Source: an uncultured Nitrososphaerota archaeon (GTDB taxonomy: Archaea; Thermoproteota; Nitrososphaeria; Nitrososphaerales; Nitrosopumilaceae). Taken from it: DNA of 64,000 nucleotides. The notes beneath the pieces were generated by a model, which was not told where the DNA came from, ran no database searches, and saw only the letters and a program-made list of their open reading frames with translations. The position numbers and the translations under genes are program-made. Positions 31,895 to 45,075 of this stretch are shown piece by piece (the first letter of the stretch is position 1; each line of letters starts with the position of its first letter). The stretch lies in NCBI GenBank assembly GCA_963824385.1, contig CAWGPD010000002.1:32001-96000 (forward strand), read 5' to 3'.

Positions 31895-32640
31895 GTTATC
31901 TCTAGAATTCGTGTATCTTTTTTTCCTGAATCTCTCAGTTCGCGGATCTTATCTAATGATTGAGTAGCCAACTTGGCTGCATCTCTTCCAGTTTTTGCTG
32001 TCCCAATTCCGCAGTTAAATGAGATATCATATTTTTGTTTCACAATTTCAAGAAACTTTGTTATTTCATCTTTATTCACACTTGAACTTATTATCATAAA
32101 ATTATCGCCCCCCATGAAAAATGCAAGTGAATTTCTTTGTAGAAAAAATTCTGACATTTCTGAACATAATTTGATAATAAGTAATGATACTTCATATGGT
32201 GACTTTTTTGCTGAGACTGAAGTAGAACCATCTACATCCATGTGTATAATCTGAACTGAATTTTCATCTGTTCCTAGAGGAAAGCCGAAAATATTATGAT
32301 CCTTATTTAATATGGTATTAGTGCGTCGTGCCTTGTCAGCAATTAAACTTGCTTCAAATGGAGTTTTACCTTGTCCTATAGACATTGACAAGCTCAACTC
32401 AAAGGACTTTACTAGTTGTTTTTGAATTTCTATATGATCATCAATTGAAAGACTGTTAGTTATAACAAATATTTCATCAAATCTGTTAGGAAATGCAAGA
32501 CAGTTTTTTTCTGAAAACAAATTTTGTATTTCTTTGTATAATGATGCTTGTAGCATCTGAAGTCTATGTTCCCGATCACTACCTAAGGTTAGAGTCCATG
32601 GTCCGTATCCAGTGATCTTAATTATTGTCAGTTGAATCAT
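31888..32640 (-). CDS. gch3: GTP cyclohydrolase III
   Basis: GYGPWTLTLGSDREHRLQ, RFD, FMGGDNF. Confidence 0.92.
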   Translation of the reverse strand: MIQLTIIKITGYGPWTLTLGSDREHRLQMLQASLYKEIQNLFSEKNCLAFPNRFDEIFVITNSLSIDDHIEIQKQLVKSFELSLSMSIGQGKTPFEASLIADKARRTNTILNKDHNIFGFPLGTDENSVQIIHMDVDGSTSVSAKKSPYEVSLLIIKLCSEMSEFFLQRNSLAFFMGGDNFMIISSSVNKDEITKFLEIVKQKYDISFNCGIGTAKTGRDAAKLATQSLDKIRELRDSGKKDTRILEITC

Positions 32641-39800: not shown

Positions 39801-42459
39801 CTAGCCGGATGTACAACCGCTGTATCCACATTCAATGCATACACTGCATCCCTCTGCAAATACCAAGTTGTTTTTACATGTAGGACAGAGTCTCTCTTCC
39901 ATTTGTTCTGGTGTAAGTGTTGGCGTTGGAGCAGATACTACATTATCTGGAATTTTTATCTGAAGTGCTCGTTCTATCTCAGTTTTTAGATATGCATTTG
40001 TGACATTCTTTGAGATATAGTCTGTAACAAATGGACTTGGAGTAACTTGGAAATTCTTTTGGACATCCTTTCCAGTCATGTGTAATACTTGTTCATGTCT
40101 TGAACCATCTCTAAAGACAGTAATTCCTTTTAGACCGAGGTCATGTGCTAATAGATATGCGGCTTTAACATCATCAGATGAAACGTCGCTTGGCATATTG
40201 ATTGTCTTTGCAATTGCATTACCTATCCATTTTTGCCATACTCCCTGAGCCATTAGATGGTCTGCCCAGTGAATGTCCATTGCTGTAACAAATATCTTCT
40301 GCATCCATTCTGGGATCTCAGCGATTCCTTTTACAGAACCGTAGTTATTTGCAATCTTCTCCAGAATTTGCTCGCTGTATAGTCCATGCTCCTTGAGTAC
40401 TGCTTCAAATATTTTATTTGTATAGAAGAATCTGCCTACTGTTACTCTCTTTTCAAAGACCAGGGCAAACATTGGTTCCATTCCATTTGAGCAATCAGTG
40501 TATCATTGATAGTGTACCAGTAGGAGCAACTGTAGTTGTTAGAACATTTCTAATGCCATGTTTCTGAATCTTGGCAATCAAAGCATCCCAATCATAAGTA
40601 CGAGCACTTTTTGGTTTCTCATAATATCCAGCAATAGGAATCTTAGCTTCTGGATATTCTGTTTTTGAGCACAGTGGAAATGATCCTCGTGTCTTTGCAA
40701 GTGCAATACTTTCTTCCATTGAATAATATGTTAATGCCTCAGCAAGTTTCTCTTGGAATTCGTATCCTTCTTGGGAATTGTATGGAATTCTTAATTTGAA
40801 TAAGAGATCAGCAACTCCCATTACTCCAAGTCCGATTCTTCGAGAATCTTTAGATGCCTTGTCAATTTCCGGAATTGGATATGTATTAACATCAATTACA
40901 TTATCAAGGAATCTTGTTGTTTTTCTTATTGTTTCTTCATATCGTTGCCAGTCAAATTCGTATTGACCATCTGCTTTTCTCTTGACATAGTTAGATAGAT
41001 TGATGGAACCAAGATTACATGATTCGTATGGATAGAGACTTTGTTCACCACATGGGTTGGTAGCTCTAATTGGTCCACCTCTTGCTTTTGCAAATACATT
41101 GTATTTGTTAATAATATCAAAGAAGATTAGTCCTGGTTCGCCACTCTTCCATGCAGAAAGTGCAATCAAGTCAATCAGATTATGTGCATTTATTTCTCTT
41201 ACAGGAGTTCTCTCTTTTGGACTTCGAAGGACAAATTTTCCATCCGCTGAATTAATTAGTGCTTCCCAAAAGTCTTCCCAAATTCCTACACTTACATTAA
41301 AGTTTTCTAAAACTCCTGGTTTTGTTTTTGCAGTGATAAATTTCTCAACGTCTGGGTGCCATGCCTCAATGATTCCCATGTTTGCACCTCTTCTTTTTCC
41401 ACCTTGTTTTACTACTTCAGTAACAGTATTGATGATACTCATAAAGGAGACAGGACCTGAAGTTACTCCAGATGTTGAGGCCACCATATCTCCTTCTTGT
41501 CTTAAATCTGAATAGTTGATACCAACTCCTCCACCTGACTTGAAGATCAATGCAGCGTCAGAAGACGATTTCATTATTCTTTCCATGTCATCTTCCATTG
41601 CTAGGACAAAACACGCAGAAAGTTGTCCTAATCTTGCACCAGCATTCATCATAGTTGGTGAATTTGGTAGAAAGTCCTGAGCAATCATTAGATCAGTATA
41701 TTCCTGAATTCTTTCAGCATATTGTTCAAACTTATTTGCAGCCAACATAGTCAACAGTTCACGGAAGCTGACTTTCATCTGGCCGTATTTTTCTAAATCA
41801 ATATAGTGATTTATCAATGATCTAAAGTGATACTTGTTTAGATAGTATTTTCCTACTTTGAATTTATAGTCAAAGTCATCAAGTTTTTCTAGATACTTTG
41901 CTGCCTCTTCAATACTATGAGTATAGCCACCTTCAATTTGAAATACAGATGGATCTCTTATGATATCCGCAATGCCTACAAGAATTGCAACTCTTTCAAA
42001 CATTTCACCTGGACTTTCAGTTATCTGACCTTTGTTATTTCTAAGTAAATATCGGGATGCTAAAACTCGTAAGCAATTAAGATCGAATTTTTTTGCTACA
42101 CTATCAAGAGCCTTTGATTCTAGAACCTTCATTTTTTCTTCTCTAAGTCGTCTTCGTTCATGTCTATACAGGATGTACGCCTTTGCAATCTCTCCTAGTC
42201 CTTCCTCAATCAGAGTAGACTCTACCATATCTTGGACATCTTCTACGCTTGGTGCTTCTGAACCAGAAAATCCACGGTTGACAAGTTTTGTAAGAACATG
42301 ATTTGCAAGCTTGTCTGCTAGTCCATGATCTGATCTTCCGCAAGCTACGAGTGCTTTGTATATCGCGCTTGAAATTTTATCTCTTTGGAAATCTGATACT
42401 CGACCATCGCGTTTCTTTACTTGAAGGATCGAATTCTCTATTTGTGAAAAATCTGTCAA
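39801..42459 (-). CDS. nrdJ: Class II (adenosylcobalamin-dependent) ribonucleotide reductase with ATP-cone (apparent frameshift at ~40499)
   Basis: VKKRDG cone, PNSPTMMNAG, LSACFV, TNPCGEQ, CNLGSINL, VAPTGT, C-terminal CxxC..CxxC. Confidence 0.95.
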
Positions 42460-42462
42460 CTT

Positions 42463-42490
42463 ACTCCCCGTACCCCTATCAAATGGGAGT
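42463..42490. promoter_or_regulatory. ACTCCC-N16-GGGAGT inverted repeat between the putative nrdJ TATA box and start codon
   Basis: Arms at 42463-42468 and 42485-42490; minus-strand TTTATTTAA abuts the upstream arm. Confidence 0.4.
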
Positions 42491-42748
42491 TAAATAAACA
42501 CTGCGGCAAAAAATAATTTTCTAAAGCTAAACTTTGGATCAATTTTGTTGACACCATTACGATTTTCATAGTATGAGATCACTTGAAGAATTACACATAA
42601 AAATTTAATCTACGCCTGAGATCAAATTTTCAGTTTAGCCCTTGGATCACAAATAACAGTTCGAAGAATTATTCATTAAAAATTCAAATAAAAGTTTAGT
42701 TTGATTGAAAAATTTTAATCTGATTATCAGTATTTCCTAAGGTGAGAG

Positions 42749-44845
42749 TTATGCAAGTATGTAAGGCGATTTGCATACTGAACATTTTTCGGCGATCTTT
42801 TCCTCTTTGAGACCACAGTTACTACATATGGGTACTTTTCTAATTGGTCTGAAAGATCCTAATAGATCACCTGCTTTTTCAATTGCTTTCTTAATTCCTG
42901 AAGAATCCATTGCGTCTGGGATCTTTAATTGAACTAGTAGTCCGCCGTTGAGTATCTTTGAGAAATAGTTTGATTCTACAATCTTTTCATTCTTAGGATT
43001 CATCTCTGTTATCTCAGAGGCATCAAGTACAATTCCTTCAGAATAGGACTCGCCCATGACATGTTGATTAATTGATGTCTTGCCATATTTTTCACCGTCA
43101 AGCGAGGAGAAACGGCTCGCTGCATCACTCTCAGTCATAGTTACGATAACATTATCTCCCATTTCCTTTCCTTTCTTTGTGGCTACTTCCATAGCAGTGT
43201 TTATCACTTTAGCCAGGATTTCGTGTCCAGCCTTGTTGTTTTCAAATCCTAAAATACCATAAACTGCCTCTTTGAGTCCTATTAGATTAACAACTAGAGT
43301 TACTGATCCCTTTTGCATATACTGAGTATTGTTTGCAAGAATTGGATTAAGACCACGTCTTGTTAGATCAGATATTTCCTTCTTTCTCAAAGACATGGCT
43401 GCAAGTGCTGGTTTCATCAATAGTGCAAGTCTTGCTCTGAAATAGGTTTCATCTTTGTTAGATTCAAAAGCCAATCTTGGCATATTGATTGATAGAGATT
43501 CTAAATTAATAGAGGTTGTTCCAACGTTCTTTGTATCTATTCGTGCCAAGCCTTTGTTAGATACCAAGCCTTTAGCAAACATAATGTGTCCTCCTAATGC
43601 AATTATATCTGCCAAAATTTCTGAATAATCACTTATCTTGGCTTTTTCATAATCAACTATCAATCCTATTGAAGGAATTGGTGTTGACTTTACATATTTT
43701 TTGTAGGCTTGAAGAATAGTATTAACTAATTTTGGTTCTGTTCCAATAGAAATTCTAAATGAAGTAAGTGTTCCATTCTTTCCGTATTTAGATCCTGTAG
43801 ATATTTTTGCAAAGCAGCTTGCAAGTTTTTCTTCAATTTCAGGTAAATTCTTGGAATATTTTTGTAATACAGCAACTAATCCGTCCATTATTACTTCTTG
43901 TGATGCTTCTTTTATGAGAAGACTTGTCAATAGAGACAGAGATGTGAAGAGATCATCTAGTGAATTTGGTGGTGATGTTCTTGTAACACCCAAGAATTTT
44001 CCTCGCAGATCAACACCATCCTCTATAAGTTCCTTAATGTTTACAAATATGGTATCTGGAAGAAGTGACCATAATCCAGCATTTGTAATATGAAGATCTC
44101 CTGAGAGATGAGAGTCAGCAACGTCCTTGGGTAATGTGTTTAAGACAAGATATTCACCAAATACTGTTTGTCCCGTTTTAAACAATAGACCCTCCACGCC
44201 ATTATGTATACCATCTACGTTGGTTAACAATTCATGAATATCATAGCCAGGTAATCCAAATCTTGCAAGTTTGTGCCTATAATCTTCGTGTCCTTGTTCC
44301 AAGAGGACAGAGTTAACCATCTCACGTATGAGTGAGGATGTAAGGTAAGATGTCTGGAATTTGTATATTCTATTCTCTACTTCCTCAGTTATCTTTTGAG
44401 CAAGTTCAAGTGGAAGGCTGCCTTCGCGAACCAGGGATTGGATAATTTTATGAGAGTTGAATTCTTCTATTGATTCATGTGAAGTTCGTACATACATTTT
44501 GCCACTTTCAATGATAGATCGCTCTTCAATCTGTCTTGCAAGACTTAGGACTAGTTTTCCCAAGTTAGTAATTGTGTATCTTCTTTCAGACTTGTTTAGA
44601 GCTACAAGAGATTGTCTTAGTAATTTTCTTAAATGATATGCAAACTTACCACTTTCCTTTTTTGATTTAAAGCCAGCTAGAGATTTTAGTTCAGAATAAG
44701 TAAGAGGTCCTTTTGAGTTTAAGATACGTAAAATATCAATTCTGTTTGGACTTGCCATAACAGAGAAAATCATTCTTACACGCTTTGATGCTGATTGTAA
44801 TATTCCACCACGTTTTGGATCTCCAAAGTCTTCACTTAGCTCCAT
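42749..44845 (-). CDS. wHTH + ATP-cone + degenerate class III RNR (NrdD-like) protein
   Basis: ArsR-like HTH (SPNRIDILRIL..LTYSEL..FAYHLRKL), ATP-cone (VRTS..IEEFNSHKI..LIREMV), SHLSGDLHI, SINMPRLA, terminal CxxC..CxxC; no RxxGY. Confidence 0.85.
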   Translation of the reverse strand: MELSEDFGDPKRGGILQSASKRVRMIFSVMASPNRIDILRILNSKGPLTYSELKSLAGFKSKKESGKFAYHLRKLLRQSLVALNKSERRYTITNLGKLVLSLARQIEERSIIESGKMYVRTSHESIEEFNSHKIIQSLVREGSLPLELAQKITEEVENRIYKFQTSYLTSSLIREMVNSVLLEQGHEDYRHKLARFGLPGYDIHELLTNVDGIHNGVEGLLFKTGQTVFGEYLVLNTLPKDVADSHLSGDLHITNAGLWSLLPDTIFVNIKELIEDGVDLRGKFLGVTRTSPPNSLDDLFTSLSLLTSLLIKEASQEVIMDGLVAVLQKYSKNLPEIEEKLASCFAKISTGSKYGKNGTLTSFRISIGTEPKLVNTILQAYKKYVKSTPIPSIGLIVDYEKAKISDYSEILADIIALGGHIMFAKGLVSNKGLARIDTKNVGTTSINLESLSINMPRLAFESNKDETYFRARLALLMKPALAAMSLRKKEISDLTRRGLNPILANNTQYMQKGSVTLVVNLIGLKEAVYGILGFENNKAGHEILAKVINTAMEVATKKGKEMGDNVIVTMTESDAASRFSSLDGEKYGKTSINQHVMGESYSEGIVLDASEITEMNPKNEKIVESNYFSKILNGGLLVQLKIPDAMDSSGIKKAIEKAGDLLGSFRPIRKVPICSNCGLKEEKIAEKCSVCKSPYILA

Positions 44846-44913
44846 GAAATTACCTAATTGGCATCGGTAATTAAGATTTTTGACTGATTTGATCTCTACG
44901 GAAGCTTTTTAGA

Positions 44914-45075
44914 TCAGTTTTTCTGTACGTCTACACTAAATTCAGATGGAGATAGACTCTGCCCACATGAGGGACATTTACTGTTATACGGTCTCATCAC
45001 ATCTTTTATTGATTTTAGCATACGCATATTTGCAATTTTAGCTCCACATTTTCCACAAACAACATCTACAGACAT
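44914..45075 (-). CDS. Small Zn-finger protein (53 aa), absent from ORF track
   Basis: MSVDVVCGKCGAKIANMRMLKSIKDVMRPYNSKCPSCGQSLSPSEFSVDVQKN; TTTATAA about 25 nt upstream. Confidence 0.75.
   Translation of the reverse strand: MSVDVVCGKCGAKIANMRMLKSIKDVMRPYNSKCPSCGQSLSPSEFSVDVQKN

Follow-up and report, generated by a model that had tools for sequence, protein, structure and literature searches.

Why does a gene resembling an anaerobic ribonucleotide reductase (RNR) stand directly upstream of a different, B12-dependent RNR gene in an ammonia-oxidising archaeon, and what would its product do there? The question is raised by a stretch of 64,000 nucleotides (positions 32,001 to 96,000 of contig CAWGPD010000002.1, assembly GCA_963824385.1) from an uncultured Nitrososphaerota archaeon of the Nitrosopumilaceae, referred to here in its whole length as the window. 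On its minus strand, an intact open reading frame (ORF) of 698 amino acids (aa), starting with ATG, lies at 42749..44845 and is followed on the same strand, after a gap of 289 bp, by nrdJ (39801..42459, -). The latter, as recognised by Pfam and NCBIfam, encodes a class II B12-dependent RNR with an ATP-cone of its own, and it is the presumed target of what will be called the candidate regulator. A preliminary description had correctly reported the intact ORF, its co-orientation with nrdJ and its position directly upstream of it, and had proposed that a catalytically dead class III RNR (NrdD) fused to a helix-turn-helix (HTH) serves as an archaeal analogue of NrdR.

According to two reports (PMC9110341, PMC12176259), NrdR is the bacterial RNR-specific repressor and is composed of a zinc ribbon and an ATP-cone. 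The analysis presented here favours, with a probability of roughly two in three, the reading that the gene encodes a pseudoenzyme transcription factor which would exert nucleotide-sensing control over the adjacent RNR, and which would thus be a functional analogue of NrdR; DNA binding, the ligand, the oligomeric state and the direction of control, whether repression or activation, are parts of this reading that we infer. For archaea without NrdR, the literature searched holds no description of how RNR is regulated, and the family to which the gene belongs offers a concrete candidate, together with a candidate operator. Members of this family are found in the dominant nitrifiers of soils and oceans as well as in Bathyarchaeia. 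Full-text literature searches returned no description of the family, and it is not mentioned in the available parts of two surveys of RNRs (PMC3019208, PMC2795772).

An NrdD-like protein and its missing radical residues

The fusion of HTH, ATP-cone and NrdD-like barrel that had been proposed is borne out by three Pfam domains over their cut-offs. At the N-terminus, an ArsR-like winged helix-turn-helix (wHTH) at aa 26-100 (44546..44770, -) is matched by the Pfam families DUF7347 (40.8 bits, cut-off 27.6) and HTH_20 (32.6 bits, cut-off 27), an ArsR/SmtB-type signature by the Pfam cut-offs; the score for the metalloregulator subfamily NF033788 of NCBIfam is 23.3 bits, below its cut-off of 55. It is followed by an ATP-cone (PF03477) at aa 117-189 (44279..44497, -), a divergent 'VRTS' variant which scores 39.9 bits, the cut-off being 25.8, over profile positions 1-75 of 88. 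Structure matching and alignment delimit a ten-stranded, NrdD-like barrel without radical residues at aa 206-660 (42866..44230, -), and the Pfam family NRDD is matched at aa 442-693 with 85.1 bits over profile positions 275-529 of 562, that is, over its C-terminal half. The protein closes with a four-cysteine zinc ribbon identified by alignment (42752..42865, -), whose residues C674, C677, C688 and C691 are invariant in the broad family alignment. The motifs quoted in the preliminary description were all found, namely SHLSGDLHI at residue 245, SINMPRLA at 452, LIGLKEA at 521, ESDAASRF at 572 and NGG at 633, as well as the terminal CxxC..CxxC.

An AlphaFold2 model built on 101 relatives reached a mean pLDDT of 92.7 and a pTM of 0.86. 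The best solved matches of this model are all class III RNRs, with true NrdDs at Z 24-29.5 in VIA-align: the NrdD of P. copri (8p2s_A; Z 29.5, rmsd 2.9 A over 433 residues), that of T4 (1h7b; Z 29.1) and that of T. maritima (Z 26-28). Class I and II RNRs and pyruvate formate-lyase rank next, at Z 18-21. The NrdD of S. thermophilus was matched by Foldseek at E 1.7e-20, and as the match with the S. thermophilus structure 9dca starts at model residue 116 and spans residues 116-698, the likeness to a cone-bearing NrdD extends over cone and barrel together. The regulator sequence alone had 0 matches in the PDB; the family profile recovered NrdD chains at E 2e-43 to 3e-33. Going by the model, the barrel keeps the NrdD fold and its homology to NrdD is clear.

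The comparison with NrdD that the preliminary description had suggested, by alignment and structure prediction, confirms this fold and finds both the glycyl-radical loop and the catalytic cysteines lost. The site alignment comprised seven thaumarchaeal proteins (the window's and six others), seven bathyarchaeal regulators and six true NrdDs encoded by genes neighbouring them. The finger-loop pair is CC in all six true NrdDs; in the bathyarchaeal regulators it reads G followed by T, T, C, F, F, C and E, respectively, and in the thaumarchaeal proteins the segment is deleted (7/7). The second active-site cysteine, again present in 6/6 true NrdDs, is replaced by E, E, T, E, Q, E and T in the bathyarchaeal regulators and by T, A, T, T, S, T and N in the thaumarchaeal ones, the residue in the window's protein being T265. 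Where the six true NrdDs have the glycine of SRITGYY, the bathyarchaeal regulators carry A, T, A, A, a gap, S and A, and the thaumarchaeal proteins have ended earlier (7/7); in an independent alignment, a long relative has an alanine opposite the radical glycine of the T. maritima NrdD. Since thaumarchaeal and bathyarchaeal members are both without the radical residues, it is the whole family which lost the radical machinery, and not only the branch of the ammonia oxidisers, in which the C-terminal tail is additionally gone.

As had been reported, the window's protein ends seven residues past C691, and R..G[YF] is found in none of the three frames downstream of the stop codon. The earlier remark on its cysteines is likewise confirmed: they are residues 344, 674, 677, 688 and 691 only, and C344, the sole one outside the ribbon, is not in a catalytic context. 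In NCBIfam the protein does not reach the cut-off of the NrdD equivalog TIGR02487 (76.2 bits, cut-off 326.35), nor those of five further NrdD equivalogs (29-43 bits, cut-offs 545-764). To judge by its residues, the regulator is catalytically dead as a class III RNR.

The genomes point in the same direction. In that of the window (1.68 Mb in 5 contigs, 86% complete) the best scores for NrdG and NrdG2 are 40.3 and 49.8 bits, with cut-offs at 126 and 131, so that the earlier statement that no nrdG lies nearby extends to this whole assembly. The NRDD matches of the same genome are confined to the regulator gene, and nrdJ is its only class I/II RNR. NrdR (TIGR00244) was not found in it, the single match, of 19.3 bits, lying within the cone of nrdJ, and TIGR00244 is not among the NCBIfam matches of the regulator protein. 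In an order-wide survey of 41 genomes, the window's included, no activase exceeded the cut-off in 40, in agreement with the dead enzyme proposed earlier, whose author had suggested looking for an absence of nrdG across Nitrososphaerota; NrdG2 was over the cut-off in 1/41 and true NrdD likewise in 1/41, the same genome. In this genome (G039, 82% complete) a true nrdD (457 bits) and nrdG (198 bits) adjoin on contig C30, and contig C22 carries the regulator gene beside another RNR gene. The nrdD/nrdG pair represents either a lineage retaining the anaerobic enzyme or a binning artefact.

Distribution, gene neighbourhood and candidate operators

Of 4097 relatives scored in a word-indexed search, the best 120 are 72-100% identical to the regulator and mostly 694-703 aa long, with four shorter ones (582-674 aa), and all but one of them contain the same four Pfam families; their named sources are Nitrosopumilaceae, Nitrosotalea and Thaumarchaeota. 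Where database names are given among them, they are anaerobic RNR, ArsR-family regulator and HTH protein. The label 'anaerobic ribonucleoside-triphosphate reductase' is used by several sources, as was suspected when the family was first thought to be widespread and mislabelled as NrdD, and such an annotation can lead to errors when the metabolism of aerobic ammonia oxidisers is reconstructed. An exhaustive search of representatives chosen at 50% identity gave 1138 matches at E <= 1e-3, of which 187 reached E <= 1e-30. Longer relatives, of about 740-770 aa, are almost entirely bathyarchaeal. Such a protein is encoded by at least 583 stretches of the genome collection, and the titles of the best 80 name, with few exceptions, Bathyarchaeia or Bathyarchaeota. 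Two contigs carrying a regulator of archaeal type (L110 and L134) are filed under the names of bacterial metagenome-assembled genomes (Krumholzibacteriaceae and Methylomirabilota), and they are probably mis-binned.

Within the order, orthologues of the regulator are present in 39 of the 41 genomes (23 of 24 of the same genus and 15 of 16 from other families); of the two without the gene, one is 63% complete and the other, discussed below, 99% complete. A same-genus genome which is 54% complete (G023) has a second copy, 69% identical, on a separate contig (C10), which may derive from two strains binned together. Three unpublished genomes of the genus, namely G011, G012 and G019 (loci L029, L022 and L028, respectively), enter the order tallies, the promoter alignments and the count of 23/23 operators given below, and L028 and L029 are two of the nine pairs used for the selection test. 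Without these three genomes, the genus tally becomes 20/21, the operator count 20/20 and the order counts of NrdG and of NrdD 1/38, and the conclusions are unaffected.

The synteny with nrdJ, which the preliminary description had proposed to examine, holds across the order. The regulator gene is directly upstream of an RNR large-subunit gene and co-oriented with it in 29 of the 30 loci of a first set, the sole exception ending at a contig edge, and in all 14 loci of other families. In Bathyarchaeia, 27 of the best 80 loci have full flanks, and the downstream ORFs were scanned in 26 of them. A full-length NrdD (481-539 bits, the profile being covered end to end) is encoded next or next but one, co-oriented, in 13/26; the small ORF between regulator and nrdD is glutaredoxin-like in the four loci scanned for it. 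In one further locus (1/26) a gene downstream encodes a class I/II RNR that contains a TSCPD domain, and the downstream neighbours are unrelated in 12/26. The partner of the regulator changes with the RNR class of the cell, being nrdD in anaerobes and nrdJ in ammonia oxidisers. For an RNR regulator, a gene that accompanies both is what one would expect, but not for an enzyme bound to a single chemistry.

The bathyarchaeal loci also bear on the origin of the family. The preliminary description had supposed that an anaerobic RNR was repurposed because it was unusable in an aerobe, a view that is not supported, as the same dead architecture is found upstream of a working nrdD in anaerobic Bathyarchaeia. 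Dead, HTH-bearing copies beside a working nrdD in anaerobes imply that the loss of activity preceded life with oxygen and did not result from it. This arrangement of HTH, cone and dead barrel makes it most likely that a duplication next to a functional nrdD gave rise to the regulator, which then persisted through the takeover by nrdJ. In the proposed sequence of events, nrdD would have been duplicated in tandem in an anaerobic ancestor of Bathyarchaeia and Nitrososphaeria, after which one copy would have gained the HTH and lost the radical residues; the ammonia oxidisers would have kept this regulator when nrdJ replaced nrdD, and its C-terminal tail would have been lost too.

A candidate operator recurs at the promoters concerned. 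In 15 regulator-to-RNR intergenic regions (the window's and 14 from other families), an unbiased k-mer scan placed TGTCAAA at the top, with 7/15 regions against 0.61 expected, and a k-mer scoring as high arose in 1/400 shuffles; the word is not enriched in the intergenic DNA of the window's genome. The palindrome GTCAA-N6-TTGAC was tested as a pattern fixed beforehand, with 1000 shuffles which preserved base composition only. Allowing at most one mismatch, it occurs in 6/15 of these intergenic regions (0.078 expected) and, allowing at most two, in 10/15 (1.3 expected). In the 200 nt upstream of the regulator gene, the corresponding figures are 4/15 (0.098 expected) and 9/15 (1.26 expected), with 0/1000 shuffles in each of the four cases. 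The palindrome words are not enriched in genome-wide intergenic DNA: the 1.68 Mb hold 44 N6 sites (5 intergenic) and 73 N5 sites (14 intergenic), the intergenic DNA amounting to 247 kb.

In the window, the candidate operator is GTCAACAAAATTGAT (42538..42552, -), an N5 variant of GTCAA-N6-TTGAC with one mismatch, which begins 93 nt before the start codon of nrdJ and ends 79 nt before it; it is one of the 14 intergenic N5 sites just counted, and such sites are rare in the genome. The N5 operator is present in 23/23 same-genus loci, two of which have a perfect TTGAC half. An alignment of these 23 loci reveals a block of ~120 bp upstream of nrdJ (42460..42580, -) that is nearly invariant in the genus, beyond which the upstream DNA is not conserved and cannot be aligned. 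The block contains the TATA-like TTTATTTAA (42490-42498, -) and, before nrdJ, the Shine-Dalgarno-like word GGGGAG. In the promoter region of the regulator itself (44868..44884, -), an alignment of 23 same-genus loci shows a shorter conserved stretch, with a GTCAA half-site (44880-44884) abutting the TATA-like AAATCTTAATTA, which is centred ~29 nt before the regulator's ATG. The distance from the palindrome to the first start codon is 45-65 nt in several lineages, which places the palindrome near the expected position of the core promoter.

Nucleotide sensing weighed against other readings

In the favoured reading, the N-terminal ArsR-like wHTH would bind the promoter of the adjacent RNR gene and, in many lineages, its own promoter too, at a candidate operator of the form GTCAA-N5/6-TTGAC and presumably as a dimer. 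Both NrdD and ArsR proteins are dimers; the predicted complex of two copies of aa 1-205 scored 0.37, with the mark at 0.42. The ATP/dATP or (d)NTP state would be sensed by the ATP-cone, and possibly also by nucleotide sites that the dead barrel has kept, and binding would change the transcription of nrdJ in such a way that RNR expression follows the supply of DNA precursors. If this is true, the family would clearly exemplify the conversion of a radical enzyme into a transcription factor that senses a ligand, and also a regulator which kept its job while the class of the controlled enzyme was exchanged. A more ambitious formulation is a general RNR regulator of two large archaeal classes, Nitrososphaeria, with their globally abundant ammonia oxidisers, and Bathyarchaeia, whose cone would read ATP/dATP and whose barrel would read (d)NTPs at effector or substrate sites, which would bind RNR promoters and its own, and which would have survived the swap of its target from nrdD to nrdJ; taken as a whole, it is advanced tentatively, at slightly less than even odds.

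Like NrdR, the regulator has an ATP-cone, is encoded beside RNR genes, has candidate operators both at the RNR promoter and at its own, and is presumed to couple RNR transcription to ATP/dATP. Unlike NrdR, its DNA-binding domain is an N-terminal winged helix and not a zinc ribbon, it carries in addition a dead NrdD barrel of ~450 aa and a C-terminal zinc ribbon, and its candidate operator is a single palindrome of 15-16 bp, where NrdR uses tandem NrdR boxes. It would work like NrdR, and it is not a member of the NrdR family. In this form the earlier idea of an archaeal NrdR analogue is supported at the level of sequence, through the architecture, the synteny, a purifying selection that is strongest on the HTH and the lack of NrdR in the window's genome.

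With the NrdDs (T4 1h7b, T. maritima 4coi, P. copri 8p2s and S. thermophilus 9d3x) the regulator shares the barrel fold and the four-cysteine zinc ribbon, and with the cone-bearing NrdD 9dca also an N-terminal ATP-cone. It differs from them in being without the glycyl-radical tail, the finger-loop cysteines, the second cysteine and an activase partner, and in the addition of the wHTH; it is a descendant of the NrdD family, and not a functional member of it. Other sensors which derive from enzymes and are fused to an HTH are MocR/GabR, with an aminotransferase fold, and the ROK repressors, with a sugar-kinase fold. As in these, a DNA-binding domain would be combined with an enzyme-derived ligand sensor whose catalysis is lost or changed; unlike in these, the scaffold is that of a radical enzyme plus an ATP-cone, and the target would be the gene of a paralogous or analogous enzyme.

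Several points weigh against nucleotide-sensing control of the adjacent RNR. One genome of the order which is 99% complete has no regulator gene. The cone reads VRTS where canonical ATP-cones have a K-R pair and, when searched alone by sequence against solved structures, it matched no cone at E <= 0.5, with chance rows at E >= 0.6. As regards the operator, that of the window is a one-mismatch N5 variant, and only a half-site precedes the regulator gene; five of the 15 intergenic regions are without the palindrome even at two mismatches; only one of eight non-redundant bathyarchaeal intergenic regions has it, the others showing different conserved words; and the shuffle tests overstate independence, because the compared lineages are kin. 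Moreover, the window's operator is located ~50 bp upstream of the best TATA-like word, a position which reads as neither repression nor activation. A wider regulon in the window's genome was considered and rejected, as the 15 other intergenic sites adjoin no dNTP gene; their neighbours are a corrin methylase, a GATase, an arginase, SepF, an NTP-transferase, a piece of topoisomerase IB and ORFs without a family.

The domains differ in their conservation. In nine same-genus orthologues paired with the window's gene, the HTH (aa 20-105) is 100% identical in 9/9 pairs, at dS values from 0.6 to saturation, the cone with its linker is 98-100% identical, and the barrel is 81-93% identical with an omega of 0.04-0.06 where dS is measurable. 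An HTH at 100% identity and a barrel at an omega of ~0.05 argue that the regulator is not a decaying relic. In comparison with another family of the order, identity is 97% for the HTH, 81% for the cone, 47% for the barrel and 51% for the ribbon. Of 16 relatives at greater divergence, all retain the HTH (16/16), 14/16 the cone and 10/16 an NRDD match (7 over the Pfam cut-off), and six have no NRDD match at E <= 1e-4; all three domains are present in 33/33 closer and longer relatives, one NRDD score (24.9 bits) being just below the Pfam cut-off. As HTH and cone persist and NRDD fades in diverged relatives, the constant and most constrained core is the HTH with the cone. The barrel, by these measures, is under purifying selection in the window's lineage and dispensable over long distances.

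This unequal conservation feeds the most serious alternative, in which a transcription factor acts at the RNR promoter but responds to a signal other than nucleotides, the barrel being a dimerisation scaffold or a sensor of redox state (through the zinc ribbon) or of cobalamin. It would account for a barrel identity of 47% next to 97% for the HTH across families, for the complete loss of the barrel match in some relatives and for a divergent VRTS cone which, alone, resembles no solved ATP-cone by sequence. However, the cone is over the Pfam cut-off, and across 101 relatives its residues V119, R120, S122, E127, F129 and I134 show a conservation of 90% or more. The word VRTS, found where the cone of the window's own nrdJ has VKKRDG, is also present in four of the six bona fide bathyarchaeal NrdDs aligned; its occurrence in working enzymes points to a lineage variant of the cone and not to a sign of decay. 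The omega of ~0.05 of the barrel within the genus is a further difficulty, as is the linkage to two RNR classes, which suggests a signal common to both, namely nucleotides. On balance, a non-nucleotide signal appears unlikely.

It is distinctly less likely again that the protein is a working enzyme, with a non-radical chemistry on the NrdD-like scaffold and an HTH that would make it a bifunctional enzyme/repressor. The sole related precedent is GlyXL, an NrdD-like protein for which a non-radical chemistry in glycine synthesis has been proposed (PMC13759103). The regulator resembles it in being NrdD-related, without the radical or catalytic residues, and found in aerobes, and the purifying selection on the barrel would suit an enzyme. 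GlyXL lacks an HTH, its partner is the ACT-domain protein GlyXS and its linkage is to glycine metabolism, whereas no ACT-domain gene of the GlyXS type adjoins the regulator gene, which is linked to RNR genes and not to amino-acid genes. Furthermore, the closest solved structures are true NrdDs (Z 24-29.5), and the barrel decays in relatives in which HTH and cone persist. Among the structural and profile matches listed for the regulator, the GlyXL structure 2HA9 does not appear, although a likeness may exist.

Slightly less credence still is given to a protein which would act on NrdJ or on nucleotide pools, as an allosteric partner or a buffer, and not on DNA, its winged helix serving for protein contacts. 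The products of adjacent genes often interact, and the NrdD fold is kept, including the region of effector binding in true NrdDs. Nevertheless, the HTH is the most conserved domain and, in the first 90 positions of the family profile, matches DNA-binding chains of the ArsR family in the PDB (NolR, HlyU and ArsR, at E 1.7e-4 to 5e-4); the palindrome is enriched at both promoters, and the family accompanies two structurally different RNR classes. Finally, the chance that the protein is a genuine class III RNR, supplied with its radical by an activase and a glycyl-radical peptide from separate genes, is negligible: the NrdD fold, the zinc ribbon and the annotation as anaerobic RNR by several sources would agree with it, but it is contradicted by the missing thiyl cysteine and second cysteine, the lack of RxxGY in any downstream frame, the absence of NrdG/NrdG2 over the cut-off in 40/41 genomes and equivalog scores far under the cut-offs.

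Other features of the promoters and neighbouring genes

Two further one-mismatch palindromes in the window's genome lie near genes with a recognisable function, one 139 nt upstream of a corrin/porphyrin methylase gene (C2:142891) and the other 56 nt upstream of the cell-division gene SepF (C2:121815); both are compatible with chance. In Bathyarchaeia, the word GTGTYAA, picked after inspection, is present in 4/8 intergenic regions, and TGTCAA in 1/8. The sole bathyarchaeal locus with the palindrome (L092) is in the complete genome of Candidatus Bathyarchaeum tardum and has three GTCAA-N6-TTGAC sites, one of them perfect. Between the regulator and the glutaredoxin-nrdD pair, this locus and related ones share, in this order, GTGTYAATTT, two TATAC words 12 nt apart and a TATA box. 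In the same-genus locus L014, the intergenic region measures ~600 bp, the usual length being 220-300 bp, and contains two copies of the promoter/operator block; the regulator-to-nrdJ region of the same-genus locus L015 is 600 bp long as well.

Other roles for the conserved block before nrdJ were considered. A TGATCY repeat was dropped as a motif, since its 120 occurrences in the window, with 97 expected, are those of common words. A frame of 37 codons inside the block was not accepted as a gene, the substitutions in relatives not being biased to synonymous ones. No Rfam family matches the block at E <= 1, and a riboswitch or structured leader was not adopted: the RNAalifold consensus (-10.4 kcal/mol, with 2/200 column shuffles as low) has a covariation term of +0.38 and gives no covariation support. 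Near the nrdJ start (42460-42500, -), pairing of ACTCCC with GGGGAGT across 16 nt would enclose the Shine-Dalgarno-like word. A single change in relatives keeps a G-U pair, and no compensatory change was seen; a hairpin may form around this word.

Metatranscriptome contigs of relatives (88-99% alike, from four runs) cover parts of the regulator gene and of nrdJ, with DNA carry-over as a possible source. Among the contigs listed, none spans the intergenic region, and one reaches 16 nt into it.

In the window's assembly, a 1-nt frameshift at 40495-40500 (-) breaks nrdJ into two ORFs, of 654 and 226 aa. The site reads ATACACTGA, where five of five same-genus relatives, in which the gene is intact, have ATA-GCTGA, and the extra base is absent from the contigs of relatives in two RNA libraries. 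The frameshift is probably an assembly error, a real split being the alternative.

On the other side of the regulator gene, between it and a DUF35/thiolase pair, an ORF of 53 aa with two CxxC pairs (44914-45075, -) encodes a small zinc-ribbon protein. It is conserved as coding in the 22 same-genus loci for which upstream sequence was available, at 79-98% identity, and in one other family it is also found ~800 bp upstream of the regulator gene, with 60% identity.

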